Below, one piece after another: positions 1,308 through 32,043 of a stretch of DNA of 64,000 nucleotides. The notes beneath the pieces are model-generated. The model saw only the letters and a program-made list of their open reading frames with translations, was not told the origin of the DNA and made no database searches. The stretch is from positions 31,989-95,988 of IMG/VR virus record IMGVR_UViG_3300032770_000013, one strand, 5' to 3'. The position numbers were made by a program, and so were the translations under genes. Origin of the DNA: a virus. Each line of letters opens with the position of its first letter. Position 1 is the first letter of the stretch.

Positions 1308-3587
1308 TTAGCGTCTCCCCGCTGGAGCGTACCGGTACTTACACGAACCAAGGCGCCAAAAGCTGCCAATGTCCGCCGATTCCATCGTTATGCTCATCAA
1401 TCGCCCACGAAATCTAACGGACAGAAACTCAGTAGCAGATGTGCATGTGTACGGCCCGAAAACCGTTGGCGTATCGCCTGGATAATTGAGCACGTTAAAG
1501 CTTAATTGGATTTGCGCCGATGTCGCTCCATCAATCGTCTCCCAACGAAAGTCGGGTATGATCTGGTCGACGAAGACGTAGTCCTCGCTCTCCGCAAGAT
1601 AAAAATATCCGGTGGTGAACGTAGCCACCAGTGGGTTACCGGCGGCATCCGCCGTCGTCTCATGCTGATAGACAATGCCATTGGACGCCGCACCGATCGG
1701 CATGCCAAGCACGCTCTGATCGAGCCACGCCGAACGCTGTAGCGCATTGGCAGGTCCGTAATCCCATGGTGCGCCCGGCTCGAGAATGTTCATCTTGACG
1801 TAGCTGTCACACTCGCCCGACACGCTCGCAGCACTCGGATAAAGCCATCCAACCTCGTTGTACGGCGTATTCGGCATTGCCCGCACGTTCTGCAAAAACT
1901 CACTGTTGATATTCTGGAACACCTGATCCCAGATTGGGCACGGGATGATCGAGGCACCATTGCTCGTATAGGAACAGAAATTAGTGCGGTTCATCCAGTA
2001 CAGGCTTCCCCAAACCGCCTGAATCGAATGCGAGGACACCGCTCCCATGCCGGCTCCGACCTTGTTGAAGCCGAATACATTGGGCGGTCCGATATAGTTC
2101 ATCGCCCACAAATCAAGATCGGTGATGATGATGTTCTGATTCGGTGCCGCCAGACCGGCCATAATCATCGAGCCGGTTGAAATGGTATAATTGCCCGCTT
2201 GGTCGGATGCCTCCGCATTCCACTGGAAGAAATTAGATACGTCACACCACGATACCAACAGCGGCTGCTTCTGCCAGCCGATTGCCTGGTGGATCGAGGA
2301 GCCATACGCCACCATGATCTGCTCGGACATCGAGATAAACATGCCATTGTTAAACGGCGGAGCCGTCGCAATAACCTGTGCATTCTGAAAGCCCGAGGTA
2401 GGATCCCAGTAATAAAGCGCGCCGCCGTAAGGATTGGCGGCAAGAATCTCGCCCCAGTTGTCAGTCGTCCAGTCTGATGCCGTAATTTCGGTGCCGGTCT
2501 GCACGCCTTGGACGGACCCGGTGCCATAACCGCCCAAGCCATAACCGCCTAAGCCATAGCCCGTACCGCCAGGCGATGGACCTATGGCGATGTAGTAAAC
2601 CAACTGCGCCTCGCCGCCATTCATCCCGAAGGTAGAGCCGGCTGTGGCAAGCGTATTGGTCGTTATCGTGAAATCATTTGCATCCAGCACCGCATTGACG
2701 TCGTAGCTCCCCGTAATCGTGACGCCATCTGCCGTGGTTGGAATGGCAAAGACCACAATATCCGCAGCTTCAGAACCGGAAGCCGCCACTACGCCGTTAT
2801 CAATGAACGTGACCTTGACCGAATTGCTGCCGTTTGTAGTGGTGAAGACCGGCACGCTGTTGAAGACGATACTGTCTCCCGAACCAACTCCAGGAGCGGC
2901 GACGTTCTGCGATAGCGTAACCGTGGTGCCGCTGACGTTCTGGACTATCGTATTGGCCGGAATCGCAGTCGGATTGGTGAGGTCGAAGGCCACCATGCCG
3001 ATGGTTATCCAGCTTGGAGTTCCGCCGGGATACTGAAGGATTTTGCTTCCCGCGCCGGTCGAGCCTCCCGTGGTTGTTGGGTTAGATACCGTCGCTGTGG
3101 CATTGGTCGGAGCCGTAATCTCGTAAGAGCTCGGCCCGGTAACCTGCGTAATCTGATAGAGGCCATCAAGAATAAGACCGCCAATCGAAACCGGCACATT
3201 GAAAAACACCGCATCATCTACAGTCGGCCCATTGGTATTTGGATCGACAATGGTGACGACAGGACTGTTTATCGTCGTCGACATATTCGGCGGGAAATTG
3301 GAAATCAGTTGCTGCGGCGTGATGTCCTGCAATTGACCATTGGTCAGGACAATCAGCTTCGCCGTGGTTCCTACCGAAAGATGCTTGTTGTTGTTGAGGT
3401 CTTGCCACGCATGGAGATCGCGCGGCAGGCCGGCGATTGGATAGGGATAGTACGGTGTCCAGCCGCCGTATTTTTGCACCAGACTATCGCGGAAGCGGAT
3501 CAGGCTCGACGACGAGAAGCCCGCACGCAACAGCAGCGGCGTGCGCAGAACGTTGACGCCCGGCACTAAGGTAACCGAGCCTTCCAT
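1308..3587 (-). CDS. Podovirus tail nozzle / DNA stabilization (P22 gp10-like) protein
   Basis: 759 aa, beta-rich; PGVN start, GYGLGGYG repeats, WTTDNWGE, VGWLYPS and C-terminal RFRGRLMSI...WRLG...GRR motifs. Confidence 0.7.
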   Translation of the reverse strand: MEGSVTLVPGVNVLRTPLLLRAGFSSSSLIRFRDSLVQKYGGWTPYYPYPIAGLPRDLHAWQDLNNNKHLSVGTTAKLIVLTNGQLQDITPQQLISNFPPNMSTTINSPVVTIVDPNTNGPTVDDAVFFNVPVSIGGLILDGLYQITQVTGPSSYEITAPTNATATVSNPTTTGGSTGAGSKILQYPGGTPSWITIGMVAFDLTNPTAIPANTIVQNVSGTTVTLSQNVAAPGVGSGDSIVFNSVPVFTTTNGSNSVKVTFIDNGVVAASGSEAADIVVFAIPTTADGVTITGSYDVNAVLDANDFTITTNTLATAGSTFGMNGGEAQLVYYIAIGPSPGGTGYGLGGYGLGGYGTGSVQGVQTGTEITASDWTTDNWGEILAANPYGGALYYWDPTSGFQNAQVIATAPPFNNGMFISMSEQIMVAYGSSIHQAIGWQKQPLLVSWCDVSNFFQWNAEASDQAGNYTISTGSMIMAGLAAPNQNIIITDLDLWAMNYIGPPNVFGFNKVGAGMGAVSSHSIQAVWGSLYWMNRTNFCSYTSNGASIIPCPIWDQVFQNINSEFLQNVRAMPNTPYNEVGWLYPSAASVSGECDSYVKMNILEPGAPWDYGPANALQRSAWLDQSVLGMPIGAASNGIVYQHETTADAAGNPLVATFTTGYFYLAESEDYVFVDQIIPDFRWETIDGATSAQIQLSFNVLNYPGDTPTVFGPYTCTSATEFLSVRFRGRLMSITMESADIGSFWRLGSCKYRYAPAGRR

Positions 3588-4091
3588 TTAATTTGGCCTC
3601 GCAAACTCGCCATGAGGCCGATTAGCAGCATCCACATACGCATGATGAGCCGCAATCTCGGTATCGAAAAGTCCCAAATGTATCCGTTTATTCTCGTGTT
3701 GTATGTTTGCGAGCCATTTCTGCGATGCTTTGTGCCAACTCACGCCCTTAAATTTCGAACTCTTCGGTCTAGACCATTGTTTCCGGTTATGCTGATTTTG
3801 CGATTTTGTCGCGGCACGAAGGTTATCAATTCGATTATCGTCTCTAACACCATTTTTGTGATCGACTTCAAATTCAGGCCATTCACCAGTCTCAAAAAGC
3901 CAAGCTATCCGATGTGCCTGATAGACTTTGCCTCGCAGTTCAATCTCGCGATATCCTTGACCGTTTTTGTGACCTGCTTCAGCGCCGACCGAACATCTGC
4001 GTGCAGGAGCGGCCCTCCAATAAAAAAGGCCAGTCTCCGGTTCGTACCGAAGCCAAGACATGAGTTCGTTGCGAGTTAGACTTTCAGCCAT
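3588..4091 (-). CDS. HNH-AP2 homing endonuclease
   Basis: AHRIAW...VDHKNGVRDDNRIDNLR followed by AP2 domain SKFKGVSWHK...HLGLFDT. Confidence 0.9.
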   Translation of the reverse strand: MAESLTRNELMSWLRYEPETGLFYWRAAPARRCSVGAEAGHKNGQGYREIELRGKVYQAHRIAWLFETGEWPEFEVDHKNGVRDDNRIDNLRAATKSQNQHNRKQWSRPKSSKFKGVSWHKASQKWLANIQHENKRIHLGLFDTEIAAHHAYVDAANRPHGEFARPN

Positions 4092-4101
4092 GGCGATAAA
4101 T

Positions 4102-5070
4102 TTATGTCTTCACTAATGGTAAGAAGGAAACGATTGTCGGCTGGACGTTCCCGGACGCGCCACTAAAAGCATTCCGGACGGTAACTGACGTAGTGATGTT
4201 GGCGTAACCTGTCGCGCTATTCAGTCCAGATCCACGGATGACGGGGGCTATGCCTGCGCTATACGGCGAAACTGAGGTGGTAAGTCCGAGATCATGTTGG
4301 TGCCCGCTATCTGTCGAGGTCGCAACAGCGGTATGGTTATGCAGTTGCGGATTATCATCGCCGCCGGCCGAGGCCATCGCACTGCCGTTAATGCCACAAA
4401 CGCTAGGACTCAATCGGCCCGTGCCGACACCATCATAGCCGACTCTCGCCCGCGCGAGCTCGTCCGGCACGGCAAAGGTTAATCCCGGTGTGCCTCCGAA
4501 GGCGTTTCCGAGAACTGAAGCCAGCGCCGGATATGTTGAATTGTTGTAAACTGCGCCGTTCTTGATGAGATAAGGAATGACCGTGCACAGCAGCATCCAC
4601 TTGGGATAATAGGTTGCACCCTGTAAATCATATGCAGTGCCCGGGTCTGGCGCGTTGACAAAGTCCATATTCGTGCCATCGTTGAAGACGTGGCACTTCT
4701 TTCCATAGGGTATCCCAATCGCATTCCCAGCCCCGCCGCTCAGCAGTTGCACGCCATGCGTCGTCGGTGTGCAAAGGTTCTGCACAATGAAGAAGCCAGC
4801 CCGTGGGAAAGTAACTTGGACGTCACCGGTAAGCACTCCGGTAAAGACAATCAGCGAGCTTTGCGATTGATACGGTCCGCTCCAAGCCGCTCCGCTATTC
4901 GGCGGCGTGCTCAGCGTCACCGGCCCGCTCGATAGGCTGATCGTCGCTACGTTGCCGAAGAGGCTGTCAATTGCTCCAAAGTTGGCATTATTGGGCAAAT
5001 CCCAGGTGCCCACGTCCGAGCCCCTTGTCGGCTGGTAGATTTGGATATTGGCTGTCTGTGGATCTGCCAC
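4102..5070 (-). CDS. Tail fibre/baseplate-like protein with tail-collar domain
   Basis: YLIKNGAVY...YPALASVLG...FAVPD, SAGG...HNH, NVQPTIV...VKT collar motifs. Confidence 0.75.
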   Translation of the reverse strand: MADPQTANIQIYQPTRGSDVGTWDLPNNANFGAIDSLFGNVATISLSSGPVTLSTPPNSGAAWSGPYQSQSSLIVFTGVLTGDVQVTFPRAGFFIVQNLCTPTTHGVQLLSGGAGNAIGIPYGKKCHVFNDGTNMDFVNAPDPGTAYDLQGATYYPKWMLLCTVIPYLIKNGAVYNNSTYPALASVLGNAFGGTPGLTFAVPDELARARVGYDGVGTGRLSPSVCGINGSAMASAGGDDNPQLHNHTAVATSTDSGHQHDLGLTTSVSPYSAGIAPVIRGSGLNSATGYANITTSVTVRNAFSGASGNVQPTIVSFLPLVKT

Positions 5071-5082
5071 GGGTTATCCTTC

Positions 5083-5793
5083 CTAAGCGCGCGGCGGCGT
5101 GGCAATCGGGTTTGGTTGTTTTGGCGTCCAACCTTGCGACTGATACCGTTTGCGCATTTCCTCAGTGTTTGCAGATGCCCACAAATCCTGATAGTGTTTT
5201 GACCAACTCGACGAACCTTGCGGATCGTCTGTAAGAGCGCCGAAGTCTTTCAAATAGCCATAACCAAATATGAGAGATTCTGCTAGGAAAAGGTCCGGCA
5301 GATACAAACTCAAATAAGTTTGCGGGTTAGTAGCACTCAATGGCGTTGGTCTAATTGTCCCGATAACCTCCATCGTGTATGCCGCATCTGGAGGTGGCCC
5401 TACAATGATTGTCTGGTCCGTTATCATCGCGTAGTATTGCGGGACCGATGGCGTTGTTGTTGCCGTCTCGTTGCCCCACATCCAATCGATGAACTCGCGC
5501 GAGGTCGGCACAAGCTGAACGCGATTGCTGGAGTTGAGCGGATAAAAGACATTCATGCTCTCAGTAACAACAAACCGTCCTTGGTCCTGAGGTAGCGTGA
5601 AGCTGCGACTATTAGGTGTAAGAGTCGCGCTGGAATCTACAATTACAGAATTTAAAATATCTAATTCTCTGAGGATTCTTTGCTCGGAATCGTCGATCAC
5701 ATTCGGCAAAAATGTTTGAAAATTCGGGTCATTCTGAGGAATGACCAGCATGTTGGCCAGCGACTGAACGTATGTCGTATAGGTAAGGCTCAT
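5083..5793 (-). CDS. Conserved virion (head-tail adaptor-like) protein; contains the inferred guide target region at 5653-5697
   Basis: IDDSEQRILRELD, PQYYAM, GPPPDAAY and TYLSLYLPDLF motifs; position among structural genes. Confidence 0.65.
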   Translation of the reverse strand: MSLTYTTYVQSLANMLVIPQNDPNFQTFLPNVIDDSEQRILRELDILNSVIVDSSATLTPNSRSFTLPQDQGRFVVTESMNVFYPLNSSNRVQLVPTSREFIDWMWGNETATTTPSVPQYYAMITDQTIIVGPPPDAAYTMEVIGTIRPTPLSATNPQTYLSLYLPDLFLAESLIFGYGYLKDFGALTDDPQGSSSWSKHYQDLWASANTEEMRKRYQSQGWTPKQPNPIATPPRA

Positions 5794-5811
5794 ATAACTT
5801 CCCGATAAATA

Positions 5812-5843
5812 GGAAAGGCCGCCACGTTAGCGACGACCTTTCC
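5812..5843 (-). terminator. 12-bp stem-loop at the 3' end of the putative guide RNA (terminator or processing hairpin)
   Basis: Minus strand GGAAAGGUCGUC-GCUAACGU-GGCGGCCUUUCC followed by UAUUUAU; two G-U pairs form only on the minus strand. Confidence 0.6.
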
Positions 5844-5849
5844 ACCCCT

Positions 5850-5927
5850 ATCAGACCGGAACTCACCAGAACTCACCCGAGCTAACCATAACCGACCTGA
5901 TCTCACCGCATCTCGTCTCACCATAAC
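5850..5927 (-). ncRNA. 5-nt-periodic GNY-NN array; putative guide RNA of the Cas7/RAMP-like protein
   Basis: Minus strand: gtt AT ggt GA gac GA gat GC ggt GA gat CA ggt CG gtt AT ggt TA gct CG ggt GA gtt CT ggt GA gtt CC ggt CT gat; 16/16 triplets are G-N-Y and 7 are GGT. Confidence 0.75.
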
Positions 5928-6115
5928 AAATGTTGACGAGAAAGAAATTTGGCGAGGATGCGCCGGACGGCCTCGGAACGGGTAGGCTTGTCCTCTTGAG
6001 TTTGCCTCCATTGATCGATCGCACCGCGTAATTTCACAGGCAATCTTATCGCGGTCACAGGGTCTTGACCTGTCTGCGGCCTTCCTCTTTTTCGTACTAC
6101 AGGTATTGACCCCAT
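5918..6115 (-). CDS. Ribbon-helix-helix (CopG/Arc-like) regulator
   Basis: RKRGRPQTG...VTAIRLP...IDQWR...TRSEAVRRIL; divergent from the HNH/RAMP pair. Confidence 0.8.
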   Translation of the reverse strand: MGSIPVVRKRGRPQTGQDPVTAIRLPVKLRGAIDQWRQTQEDKPTRSEAVRRILAKFLSRQHLLW

Positions 6116-6134
6116 AGCCTATTTGTAATACACT
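6106..6134 (+). promoter_or_regulatory. Sigma70-like promoter for the HNH-RAMP operon
   Basis: TTGACC(6106-6111)-N17-TACACT(6129-6134), upstream of ATG 6162. Confidence 0.5.
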
Positions 6135-6161
6135 TATGCCGCTGAAACAAGACGGCAGAAG

Positions 6162-6593
6162 ATGACCTACGAAGAATACATCCGTTCGCCGCAATGGCAC
6201 GCAAAACGCGAACTTGCCCTTGCAAGGGACGGATTTCGTTGCCGAGCATGCGATGCAACCGAAAATCTTGAGGTTCACCATCGGCGCTATCCCAAAATTC
6301 TTGGCACGGAAAAAGTAGACGATTTGACAACGCTCTGCGGCGGCCAAAACGGCTGCCACATGGCCATCACTAATCTCCTTCGATCTCGCAGACATGCCTT
6401 GGCGACCATCGAGGCTTCCACAACAGTCCGAATCAGCATTGGACGCATAGAGGTATCTCATGAACTACAAGAACCTGAAATTTCGGATACGCAGCGTTGC
6501 ACCCCTGCTCATGCACAACGGGCAACTGGCGGACCCACTGAACCACCATGTGAAAGAAATGCGCAAGATTACGAGCAAGCGGATCAAAACTGA
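6162..6593 (+). CDS. HNH endonuclease, overlapping the RAMP-like gene
   Basis: YEEYIRSPQW..KR...RDGFRCRAC...LEVHHRRY...DLTTLC...CH. Confidence 0.8.
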   Translation: MTYEEYIRSPQWHAKRELALARDGFRCRACDATENLEVHHRRYPKILGTEKVDDLTTLCGGQNGCHMAITNLLRSRRHALATIEASTTVRISIGRIEVSHELQEPEISDTQRCTPAHAQRATGGPTEPPCERNAQDYEQADQN

Positions 6594-7026
6594 TTCCGAC
6601 TTGGAACAACTTGCCAAGCTGGAATGGTTCGGCTCGCTTTACATCAGCAACGGCGTCCCATGCTTGCCTGGAGAACTCGTAGAGGCGACGTTTGTCAACG
6701 CCGCCAAAAAGACCAAACGAGGCCAACAAGCTAAAGCCGGCATAATTTCGGACGGCTTTTGGCCAGTTGAATACGATGGGCCAAAAGACTTGGAAGAAAT
6801 GTGGAAAGATGGACGGTTTCGGCTCACTACCGCCGTTCGCGTATAGCGCAACAAGGTTATGAGGACACGACCGATCTTTCGACAGTGGGAATCCACTATC
6901 CAAATCGACTACCTGCCGGATCAATTGGGCGTCAACGAGATCACAGATATCGTCGCCATCATGGGACGATTGATTGGCTTCGGCGATTGGCGTCCGCGTT
7001 TTGGACGCTTTGAAATCGTCTCTTGA
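6460..7026 (+). pseudogene. Stand-alone Cas7/RAMP-like protein (188 codons) interrupted by one in-frame TAG at 6844-6846
   Basis: N-terminal IRSVAPLLMHN...LADPLN; reading through TAG gives RNKVMRTRPIFRQW...LIGFGDWRPRFGRFEIVS*, a Gly-rich C-terminal loop of RAMP type; SD GAGGT before ATG. Confidence 0.7.
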
Positions 7027-7058
7027 CCGCATCGCCCCACGTCACCCTTAGCCCCGCT
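7026..7058 (-). repeat. Second short, degenerate 5-nt-periodic array
   Basis: Plus strand acc GC atc GC ccc AC gtc AC cct TA gcc CC gct; same polarity as the main array. Confidence 0.4.
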
Positions 7059-7624
7059 TATTCCTCGATCTGCATGGGAACCATGCGGCCGACCTCCTTA
7101 ACCACGCGAGGCCGCACGCGGTCATCCTCCCGCGTCATCTCGCCCTTCGGCGTTTTGCCGAGGCGCTGTTCGGCTTCCCGGATTTGGCGGTTGGCGAGTT
7201 GCTCATTCTCGGTCCGGGCCTCATCGGTCAACTCTTTCGGCCGCTCCATGAGGATCAGGCCATCCTTGATGATGTGCGGCTTGTCGTAGCCCGGAGGCAA
7301 CGGCACCCAATCCGGATGCTGCCGCGGGTCGACGGGCAACCAGCCCTGCTCTTCCATGCGGGAGAGATAGAACGGATCATCGGCGCCGACGTTGCTGAAG
7401 CGCTTCCATTCCACCGATACGTCGGACGGAATCTTATCGAGATTGACCGCATCGAACGGATTGACCTGGACCGAGGCGCTACGCTGCCGGGTGCGTTTCC
7501 GCGGCGCATCGTGCTCGGCTACATGCTCGGTTTCCCGGGCATCGGGCGGCGGTGCTGCCGCATGTTCCGGTGTGCGATCGGCATTGCGACGCTGACGCCG
7601 CTGGGCAACTGTCTCGGGTTCCAT
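7058..7624 (-). CDS. Conserved head-module hypothetical protein
   Basis: IPSDVSVEWKR...EQGWLPV...DGLILMERP; follows the scaffold-like gene. Confidence 0.7.
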   Translation of the reverse strand: MEPETVAQRRQRRNADRTPEHAAAPPPDARETEHVAEHDAPRKRTRQRSASVQVNPFDAVNLDKIPSDVSVEWKRFSNVGADDPFYLSRMEEQGWLPVDPRQHPDWVPLPPGYDKPHIIKDGLILMERPKELTDEARTENEQLANRQIREAEQRLGKTPKGEMTREDDRVRPRVVKEVGRMVPMQIEE

Positions 7625-8848: not shown

Positions 8849-9562
8849 GTGGCTAATTCCCGTATATGCTCGGTTGAAGGTTGCGGCAAGCCGCACGAGG
8901 CACACGGCTATTGCCCGATGCACTACACCCGTTGGCGCAAGCACGGCGATCCACTTTACGAGGTGCCGCTTAAAAACTACGGGCCAATTTGTTCGGTTGA
9001 AGGATGTGAAAAGCCGTCCCGCGAACGAGGTTGGTGCAGCATGCACTATGCCAGATGGCTTACGCATGGCGACGTAAACTACGCAGGCAAGCCGCGTCCT
9101 AAAACCAAGTTGCAGAAGTTCATCGAAGAAGCCGTAGCATACAAAGGCGACGATTGCCTTTACTGGCCGTGGCCGACAAAGAGCCGACGCGGCTCGATCT
9201 TTGTTGACGGCCGACTGGTCAAGGCTCCGCGCTATGTGTGCACTTTGGTTCATGGCGAGCCACCAACGCCAGAATACGAAGCCGCCCATTCATGCGGCCA
9301 TGGCTGGGAAGTATGTCTCAATCCAAACCACTTGAGATGGGCAACACCGATTGAAAATGCGGCCGACAGATACCTCCATGGAACAGATGCAAGAGGGGAG
9401 AACAATCCCGGTGCCGTGTTAACAGAAACCAATGTGCGCGAAATCCGAAAGTTGCTTCGGCGTGGCATGAAACAAAAAGACATCGGAAAGATATTTGGTG
9501 TTTCCAGAGGTGCCATCTTGTCGATCAATCTGCGCAAGTCATGGGGGTGGCTAGAAGATTAG
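8849..9562 (+). CDS. HNH (Zn-binding) homing endonuclease with C-terminal HTH, antisense to the structural operon
   Basis: Two CSVEGC...CxMHYxRW repeats; AAHSCGHG...CLNPNHLRWAT..EN; QKDIGKIFGVSRGAI. Confidence 0.85.
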   Translation: MANSRICSVEGCGKPHEAHGYCPMHYTRWRKHGDPLYEVPLKNYGPICSVEGCEKPSRERGWCSMHYARWLTHGDVNYAGKPRPKTKLQKFIEEAVAYKGDDCLYWPWPTKSRRGSIFVDGRLVKAPRYVCTLVHGEPPTPEYEAAHSCGHGWEVCLNPNHLRWATPIENAADRYLHGTDARGENNPGAVLTETNVREIRKLLRRGMKQKDIGKIFGVSRGAILSINLRKSWGWLED

Positions 9563-31908: not shown

Positions 31909-32043
31909 TTACGACCGTATTTCCAATTTTTTCCTGTTGCCGCCCAAACATTTATCGTGAACGGCTGGAATATATCCGGGAAATACGAGTATTTCAATTA
32001 TAGCTTCGGAGCCTCGCTTACGGCAGGCTTTTCGACTTGGCGT

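Follow-up and report, generated by a model that had tools for sequence, protein, structure and literature searches.

Why would a phage place, between two of its virion genes, a five-nucleotide-periodic array whose variable letters resemble the first two codon positions of the gene next door? The question is raised by a 64,000-nucleotide stretch of the 95,988-bp viral record IMGVR_UViG_3300032770_000013 (positions 31,989 to 95,988; hereafter the window, in whose numbering all coordinates are given unless marked as genome). Here a small cassette separates two virion genes of a 96-kb phage, with a ribbon–helix–helix (RHH)-like gene and the array on the minus strand and an HNH nuclease gene and vipr on the plus strand. 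Our analysis indicates that the array is very probably the guide of a cassette-borne Viral Interference Programmable Repeat (VIPR) system, reading codons 33–47 of the head–tail adaptor gene of rival phages, and that the resident allele of this gene escapes it.

VIPR systems comprise a Vipr protein and a vrRNA (10.64898/2026.04.26.720920 (PMC13142463), 10.64898/2026.04.26.720927, 10.64898/2026.10.15.759431; structure 36pp). In these preprints the vrRNA consists of 9–16 YNNGG (GGY/NN) repeats and an invariable tail, related consensus forms being allowed (10.64898/2026.04.26.720920); each repeat is bound by one Vipr protomer that hides GGY and presents NN. The NN dinucleotides pair with double-stranded DNA, skipping every third target base, usually the wobble position (10.64898/2026.04.26.720920). 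Natural targets are called at ≥80% NN match, and no self match of ≥80% occurs in the published controls. Of the seven types described, some include nuclease accessory genes, with mention of HNH domains, and some have just one vrRNA; the published systems act by silencing, the nuclease types being predicted only. Wobble skipping is argued there to block escape through synonymous mutation. The features at the centre of our analysis are as follows:

5853..5927, minus strand (read 5927 to 5853): probable vrRNA guide tract, 15 pentamers of G-N-Y plus NN
5802..5852, minus strand: vrRNA 3′ tail, formed by AG-GGGTG, a 14-bp hairpin (5843..5812, loop TAAC) and TATTTAT
6460..7026, plus strand: vipr gene, 188 codons, with an in-frame TAG at 6844..6846 where homologues carry Gln
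5083..5793, minus strand: head–tail adaptor gene, 236 aa, first in a minus-strand run of tail genes (Pfam PF24175 SU10_adaptor, E = 4e-21)
5653..5697, minus strand: resident copy of the target site, adaptor codons 33–47, IDDSEQRILRELDIL, 21/30 to the guide

The probable guide tract and its Vipr protein

On the minus strand, units 1–8 of the tract read GTT AT, GGT GA, GAC GA, GAT GC, GGT GA, GAT CA, GGT CG, GTT AT and units 9–15 read GGT TA, GCT CG, GGT GA, GTT CT, GGT GA, GTT CC, GGT CT. The scaffold triplets (seven GGT, four GTT, two GAT, one GAC and one GCT) keep G and Y invariant, and their removal leaves the guide string AT GA GA GC GA CA CG AT TA CG GA CT GA CC CT. Periodic G continues past unit 15 through GAT AG, GGG TG, and at the other end the first units overlap the final codons and stop of the RHH gene (5918..6115). 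Fifteen units fall within the published vrRNA definition (9–16 tandem pentamers, GGY or a related consensus, variable NN), and the tail provides the structured, invariable 3′ element of VIPR. Its hairpin is terminator-like, with a U-rich run 3′ of it, and it ends ~10 nt ahead of the adaptor gene start codon (ATG of 5083..5793); the whole tract region folds at −46.5 kcal/mol (z −2.3). A window-wide search found no second long tract of the G-N-Y-N-N kind elsewhere in the 64 kb, and an Rfam search of the window returned no family.

The initial annotation of this locus, made from the sequence alone, had called the plus-strand gene a RAMP; the RAMP-like protein is indeed there and is a Vipr, with a reading frame interrupted by TAG. 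A profile of 39 homologues matches PDB entry 36pp_D, 'SUSP1 Vipr protein', at E = 1.3e-46, and the window protein alone does so at E = 8.5e-26 (residues 5–186); 36pp is the one solved structure that the family profile matches. An AF2 model of the window Vipr (pLDDT 94) has Csm3/Cas7 subunits as its top older solved folds, the Csm3 matches scoring E = 1e-4 with TM 0.40–0.53. Residues H19, R137, D176, W177 and R178 align with H17, R138, D177, W178 and R179 of SUSP1 Vipr, and the GGY-contact residues are invariant or nearly so among the 39 homologues. Relatives of the window Vipr number in the hundreds, nearly all 187–192 aa long and with Gln at the position of the TAG. A single-protein scan of IMG/VR with vipr found no match, whereas an alignment-based scan found 287 loci, 80 of which were fetched for comparison. 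Neither a Pfam search of the Vipr homologues nor a blastn of window 5000..7100 against the GenBank phage collection returned a match.

Tracts of 7–30 G-N-Y-N-N units lie on the vipr strand, directly 3′ of the vipr stop, in ~76 of the 80 related loci, often several in series and often with some upstream too; in some loci, linkers or hairpins are repeated between tracts. Their units are of the GGY, GTY, GCY and GAY types. The tail AG-GGGTG-[A/G]AAGG...hairpin...CCTT(T)CC is common to the vrRNAs of four loci (L001, L007, L009 and L028) and of the window, which has CCTTTCC. Because the window Vipr keeps the RNA-contact residues and its tract shares the tail of the clade's vrRNAs, we assign the tract as the vrRNA of this Vipr clade.

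Class 1 CRISPR–Cas systems offer a more distant comparison. Cas7/Csm3 shares with Vipr the RRM core, the thumb and the glycine-rich loop, as well as one protomer per guide repeat and periodic base flipping. The period differs—5 nt with three bases hidden in VIPR versus 6 nt with one flipped—and sequence identity is 10–15%. The cassette has no CRISPR array, cas1/cas2 or large subunit, its nearest neighbours being the HNH and RHH genes, and the likeness stands at fold level only.

The proposed target in related phages and the resident allele

The initial annotation had set the NN string against adaptor codons 33–47, and our recount gives the same 21 of 30 bases and 8 of 15 identical dinucleotides. 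The seven mismatched units (4, 7, 9, 10, 12, 14 and 15) include, as it had said, Arg CG to AG twice and Leu CT to TT twice. This site, starting at 5697, is the guide's best in the window on both strands (next best 19) and its best in the whole 95,988-bp genome, where 21/30 = 70% leaves no self target at ≥80%. In a permutation test, as then proposed, 1,000 dinucleotide-order shuffles reached ≥21 in 10.5% of cases window-wide, but in only 0.4% no farther than 1 kb from the array on either side. By itself this result is suggestive for the resident match; the comparative data make it decisive.

Adaptor homologues were collected from 94 loci, 14 from IMG/VR (found by peptide patterns outside the target) and 80 from metagenomes. 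In all 94, the guide's best site is the homologous codons, in frame, with scores of 23–29/30; 87 loci reach ≥24/30, the published 80% threshold, and the best reaches 29/30. The IMG/VR loci alone score 23–29, with 11 of 14 at ≥24. In the relatives' allele the peptide at the target is IDDAEQRIYRELDLL. Agreement depends on the skip: a skip of one base yields 87 sites of ≥24/30 in the 94-locus pool, while skips of 0, 2 and 3 reach 20 at most, and 500 shuffled guides yielded nothing above 24 in this 382-kb pool. A natural target of ≥80% under a 1-nt skip at the wobble is thus present, and the wobble-ignoring code first proposed for the array coincides with the published VIPR rule.

None of vipr, HNH gene, RHH gene or tract lies within 2.5–3 kb of the adaptor gene in any of the 94 loci. 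Among five whole relative records, vipr is absent from four, and the fifth has a distant copy at another position. These comparisons support the earlier prediction that the guide's natural target would be the adaptor allele of cassette-free related phages. In the corresponding database search, the exact 30-base gapped guide pattern has no perfect match in IMG/VR, whereas near-perfect matches (up to 29/30) exist in cassette-free relatives; the missing perfect match fits the mismatch at guide unit 14 in every sampled allele.

The resident allele has the lowest guide score of all 95. Its nine read-position mismatches, made up of four synonymous first-position switches and three residue changes, fall as follows:

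Codon 36, Ala to Ser (A36S): one read-position mismatch
Codon 39, Arg CGN to AGA: one
Codon 41, Tyr to Leu (Y41L): two
Codon 42, Arg CGN to AGA: one
Codon 44, Leu CTN to TTA: one
Codon 46, Leu to Ile (L46I): two, one of them already present in all homologues
Codon 47, Leu CTN to TTA: one

Taken over the whole gene, the divergence of the resident allele is ordinary (116 differences at codon positions 1–2 versus 114 ± 13, relative to the family consensus). In 15-codon windows starting at codons 33–41 (the target being the one that starts at codon 33), it is the gene's top outlier, with z 3.0–3.9 and none of 83 other distinct alleles as diverged. The excess is confined to the target region, setting in at codon 32–33, and the resident differences are derived states against a conserved family consensus. 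A co-conversion reading of the recoded patch finds no support, codons 1–31 being not unusual. All four six-fold switches together occur in the resident only (0 of 82 distinct cassette-free alleles, ~0.001 expected from the single frequencies); the others carry no switch in 38 cases, one in 32, two in 7 and three in 5.

The target contains two of the adaptor gene's three AGA codons and both of its TTA codons; genome-wide, TTA makes up 6% of Leu codons and AGA 11% of Arg codons. Contrary to the initial annotation, the gene is not GC-rich (48% versus 55% for the genome); it uses CGC five times, CGG twice and AGA three times for Arg. We observe a tRNA cluster outside the window (genome 13690–17196) with 31 genes, including tRNA-Arg(TCT) and tRNA-Leu(TAA), which decode AGA and TTA. 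Of the original claim that the resident allele was recoded to escape, the escape itself stands, by its 70% match, the lowest of 95, and its localized divergence; we infer, beyond this, that the recoding arose by selection for self-avoidance.

By the published mechanism, Vipr protomers would polymerize on the expressed vrRNA, one per pentamer, hiding G-N-Y and presenting 15 NN dinucleotides. These would pair with double-stranded DNA, each third target base being flipped out, so that the guide would read adaptor codons 33–47 in frame with the wobble as the skipped base. A DNA target would agree with the published biochemistry. Bound 100–140 nt inside the gene that opens the tail operon, the complex would silence a relative infecting the same cell; alternatively, the HNH partner might cut the target DNA. 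The resident phage would be spared because its own allele carries nine mismatches at read positions, bringing the match to 70%, below the published 80% threshold. With guide and immune allele 110 nt apart, recombination would rarely separate them.

Several observations weigh against this interpretation. The vipr reading frame is not intact: the TAG, a single C>T change from a Gln codon, is codon 129, and the amber stop cuts off the thumb Arg (R137) and the G-loop (D176-W177-R178), both encoded 3′ of it, H19 lying before. Since TAG serves as a normal stop in the resident genome (9 of 45 long open reading frames) and a search for an amber suppressor found no CTA anticodon among the genome's 31 tRNAs, the cassette's own Vipr effector is probably inactive in this record, barring an assembly error at the TAG. 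The scaffold is G-N-Y, with G as second base (GGY) in just 7 of 15 units, and the vrRNA lies on the strand opposite to vipr, versus gene-strand tracts in the loci of the 80 relatives. Guide unit 14 (NN = CC; 5858..5862) is mismatched in all 82 distinct alleles, which have CT, TT or AT there. One of the two peptide probes behind the 80 metagenome loci lies inside the target, so that this sample is biased towards alleles conserved at the target.

The recoding has its own share of these points. AGA/TTA recoding had been expected in cassette-bearing alleles only, and this did not hold up: AGR or TTR occurs singly in cassette-free alleles at 24%, 12%, 24% and 13% at the four sites (82 distinct alleles), the four-fold combination alone being unique. 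Furthermore, a patch of low GC content at third codon positions (codons 36–60, 5614..5688; 0.20–0.27 versus 0.4–0.9 elsewhere in the adaptor gene) overruns the guide footprint by ~13 codons, the resident residues beyond it reading NSVIVDSS versus STIVRD-S in the family consensus. Because of this overrun, the recoding may in part stem from a recombined stretch, with no need for guide-related selection; the patch could be such a stretch or the footprint of another, unseen guide.

The cassette and competing explanations

The remaining genes of the cassette bear on how it might act:

5918..6115, minus strand: small RHH-like gene, 65 aa, divergent from HNH–vipr and directly upstream of the vrRNA (weak phrog_22338 match)
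6162..6593, plus strand: HNH nuclease gene, 143 aa, overlapping the vipr start by 134 nt (PHROG HNH families, E = 2e-8)
6106..6134, plus strand: sigma-70-like promoter match ahead of HNH–vipr, TTGACC-17-TACACT (weak, 1 site versus 0.9 expected in shuffles)

An HNH homologue lies upstream of vipr, overlapping its start, in 50 of the 80 related loci, and the HNH gene probably serves this VIPR clade as its accessory (vap) gene. The RHH gene, assigned from reading its sequence and not from a family match, is a possible cassette regulator; homologues stand divergently upstream of HNH in four loci (L002, L003, L030 and L036). Gene order in the adaptor region is common to the relatives. Two of them, L090 and L093, keep a homologue of gene 7058..7624 just upstream, with other small genes filling the interval to the adaptor gene; this interval is therefore a variable slot, occupied here by the cassette. 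As a separate observation, three HNH endonuclease genes fall within 6 kb of the virion module (3588..4091, minus; 6162..6593, plus; 8849..9562, plus), one of them with HNH_3 and AP2 domains and placed with the tail-fibre gene 4102..5070 on one side and the 759-aa gene 1308..3587 on the other. This part of the genome has the look of a hot spot for mobile nuclease genes.

VIPR is a published kind of system, and the window locus is one of its members. The likeness extends to a ~190-aa RAMP-like homologue of SUSP1 Vipr with conserved GGY-contacting residues, a 15-pentamer guide with hypervariable NN, a structured 3′ tail and a one-base skip at the wobble. It also covers a target of ≥80% in another phage with <80% to self, an accessory gene beside vipr and a phage-borne locus. 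Matching the published kind in this way, the system is not categorically new. The characterized type II VIPRs (SUSP1 and P. fulva) have DNA-binding vap genes, vrRNAs on the vipr strand and satellites or prophage regulators as targets. In contrast, the window has an HNH nuclease partner, a single vrRNA divergent from vipr, a G-N-Y scaffold and an amber stop in vipr; its guide is directed at an essential virion gene in kin phages, with the adjacent resident homologue recoded. By the legend of Fig. S21 of the VIPR paper, it is probably of the HNH-bearing type.

Among competing explanations, the one that survives best holds that the guide is an orphan: vipr is broken, and the vrRNA now depends entirely on a Vipr provided in trans, by the genome's second vipr or by a co-infecting rival. 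The amber stop at codon 129 speaks for it, as does the second vipr, which is intact (204 aa, 31% identical to the window's; genome 19422..20036, 12 kb before the window) and has tracts of its own that also include non-GGY units. Solo vrRNAs are documented in phages that lost vipr (10.64898/2026.10.15.759431). Those of VIPR-null SUSP1-like phages and F5 satellites resemble the window locus in having no working vipr beside the guide and in matching self less than the rival, which avoids autoimmunity. They differ in that vipr–vap1 is deleted there and their guides are directed against satellites, host repeats and the vipr and vrRNAs of rivals (10.64898/2026.10.15.759431), whereas the window keeps an interrupted vipr and its guide is directed at a structural gene. 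Against the orphan reading, cross-loading between two Viprs of just 31% identity, whose loci have different vrRNA tails, is only conjectural; HNH gene, RHH gene and vrRNA are intact, and a stop made by a single C>T change could be a very recent event, a polymorphism or an error. We regard this explanation as possible, though the balance tips away from it.

A second explanation turns the cassette into a homing element. The guide would direct HNH to cut the cassette-free adaptor allele beside the empty site, and repair would copy in the cassette together with the immune patch; the HNH-type VIPR cassette would then be an RNA-guided homing element with a linked antidote, spreading itself and the recoded patch. 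The model is the intron-less homing of the T4 seg and mob endonucleases. In T-even phages these free-standing nuclease genes lie between conserved genes and act on the relatives' allele near the insertion point, the carrier being protected by site differences. Recognition here would be by RNA and not by protein, and cleavage and cassette transfer are hypothetical in this case. The fixed partnership of HNH and vipr fits homing, as does the presence of the cassette in unrelated backgrounds: no convincing homologues of the window virion genes lie near the other 80 vipr loci, the one weak partial match being to the 759-aa gene 1308..3587, in L030. The target lies ~110–150 nt from the cassette edge, the slot between the 7058..7624 homologue and the adaptor gene holds other small genes in relatives, and 5 of 89 guides of other vipr loci match their own locus at p < 0.01 (0.9 expected), all within ~0.3–1.4 kb of the cassette. 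However, the excess divergence of the resident allele begins at codon 32–33 and not at the cassette boundary, unlike a simple co-conversion tract. The adaptor family has a single cassette-bearing member in our sample, too few to show spread through a population, and published VIPRs silence. Linkage of guide and immune allele is also expected under plain rivalry, as it is for any poison–antidote pair in recombining phages. Homing thus strikes us as doubtful.

Less probable again is a decaying relic, in which the cassette is inactive and the relation of guide to target records a past conflict. The in-frame stop in vipr and the failure of unit 14 on every sampled target would fit, but no further damage is seen in tract, tail hairpin, HNH or RHH, and matches of up to 29/30 between guide and living relatives persist; we consider a relic improbable. 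It is very improbable that the vrRNA is a cis regulator, tuning the resident adaptor gene just downstream through a deliberate partial match. The vrRNA does stand directly upstream of the gene it resembles, and some guides of other loci reach 80–90% on a neighbouring gene (L045 27/30, L021 24/30); here the match to relatives (up to 97%) is far above that to self (70%), the resident differences are derived against a conserved consensus, and published controls lack self matches of ≥80%. That the array has no guide function, being a periodic protein-binding site matched by chance, has next to no probability: a 5/10-nt period beside an RHH gene would suit it, but the match is specific to the one-base skip and shuffled guides never reached 29/30. 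The two candidates of this sort, a TRAP-like site (triplets with 2-nt spacers) and an RHH operator (10-bp period), are ruled out by in-frame matches of up to 29/30 at homologous codons of many independent relatives.

Other guides of the clade and what the pattern means

A VIPR-borne guide against rivals, as we read the window tract, has a counterpart in the same genome. The second VIPR locus (L176, genome 19100–20480, ~12.9–11.5 kb before window position 1) contains several tracts, one of which was parsed by hand, the automatic parse, in wrong registers, having given nothing significant. The resulting guide matches the vipr gene of a rival (L179) at 26/28 on the antisense strand, versus 19/28 for the resident vipr; the two Vipr proteins are 81% identical. 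At the mismatched Leu and Arg the resident second vipr has TTA and AGA. Since the second guide behaves like the first, the pattern of a guide against a kin allele with the own allele diverged occurs twice in this genome.

Elsewhere in the clade, four of the five own-locus matches (among 89 distinct guides of other vipr loci) are wobble-aligned in an open reading frame, some at 80–90%, and guides of this clade often appear to correspond to cassette-adjacent genes. Guides of the 80 other vipr loci have no match of ≥85% in the resident genome or the adaptor pool; the only matches in that search were those of L031 and L045. The GCT-NN-type guide at L045:6555-6629 matches, at 27/30 and in frame, a 93-aa open reading frame ~300 nt upstream of its own cassette (L045:5263-5307). 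This exceeds the published self-target threshold and may represent self-regulation or escape with just three mismatches. The 10-unit guide at L031:6623-6672 matches the vipr of another phage (L013:6442) at 17/20, which fits published vrRNAs aimed at rival VIPR systems. Two further loci (L014:6562-6840 and L046:6580-6830) have vrRNA arrays of three ~13–14-unit tracts, separated by a repeated hairpin linker (TGAATCA..TGATTCA) in L014 and by a repeated 15-nt linker (GGATCTTCCGCCATT) in L046. Such arrays look like CRISPR arrays in which repeat and spacer have swapped roles.

The wobble-skipping, two-of-three code of the 2026 VIPR preprints was here reached from raw sequence alone, and it is confirmed independently in a distant, HNH-associated clade of environmental phages. 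The window locus goes beyond what we found in the preprints in three respects. Its guide is aimed at the phage's own kin, in one of their essential virion genes, and not at a satellite or a prophage regulator. The carrier allele beside the guide has been made invisible, partly through synonymous first-position switches in six-fold codons; the resident allele thereby shows the loophole that wobble skipping leaves open. Finally, the pattern recurs at a second locus and several guides of the clade match cassette-adjacent genes, which points to tight linkage of guide and antidote and possibly to homing. If homing were true, guides aimed at homologues of neighbouring genes would be the rule for this clade, and six-fold Arg and Leu codons would be the route to invisibility against a wobble-skipping guide without change to the protein.

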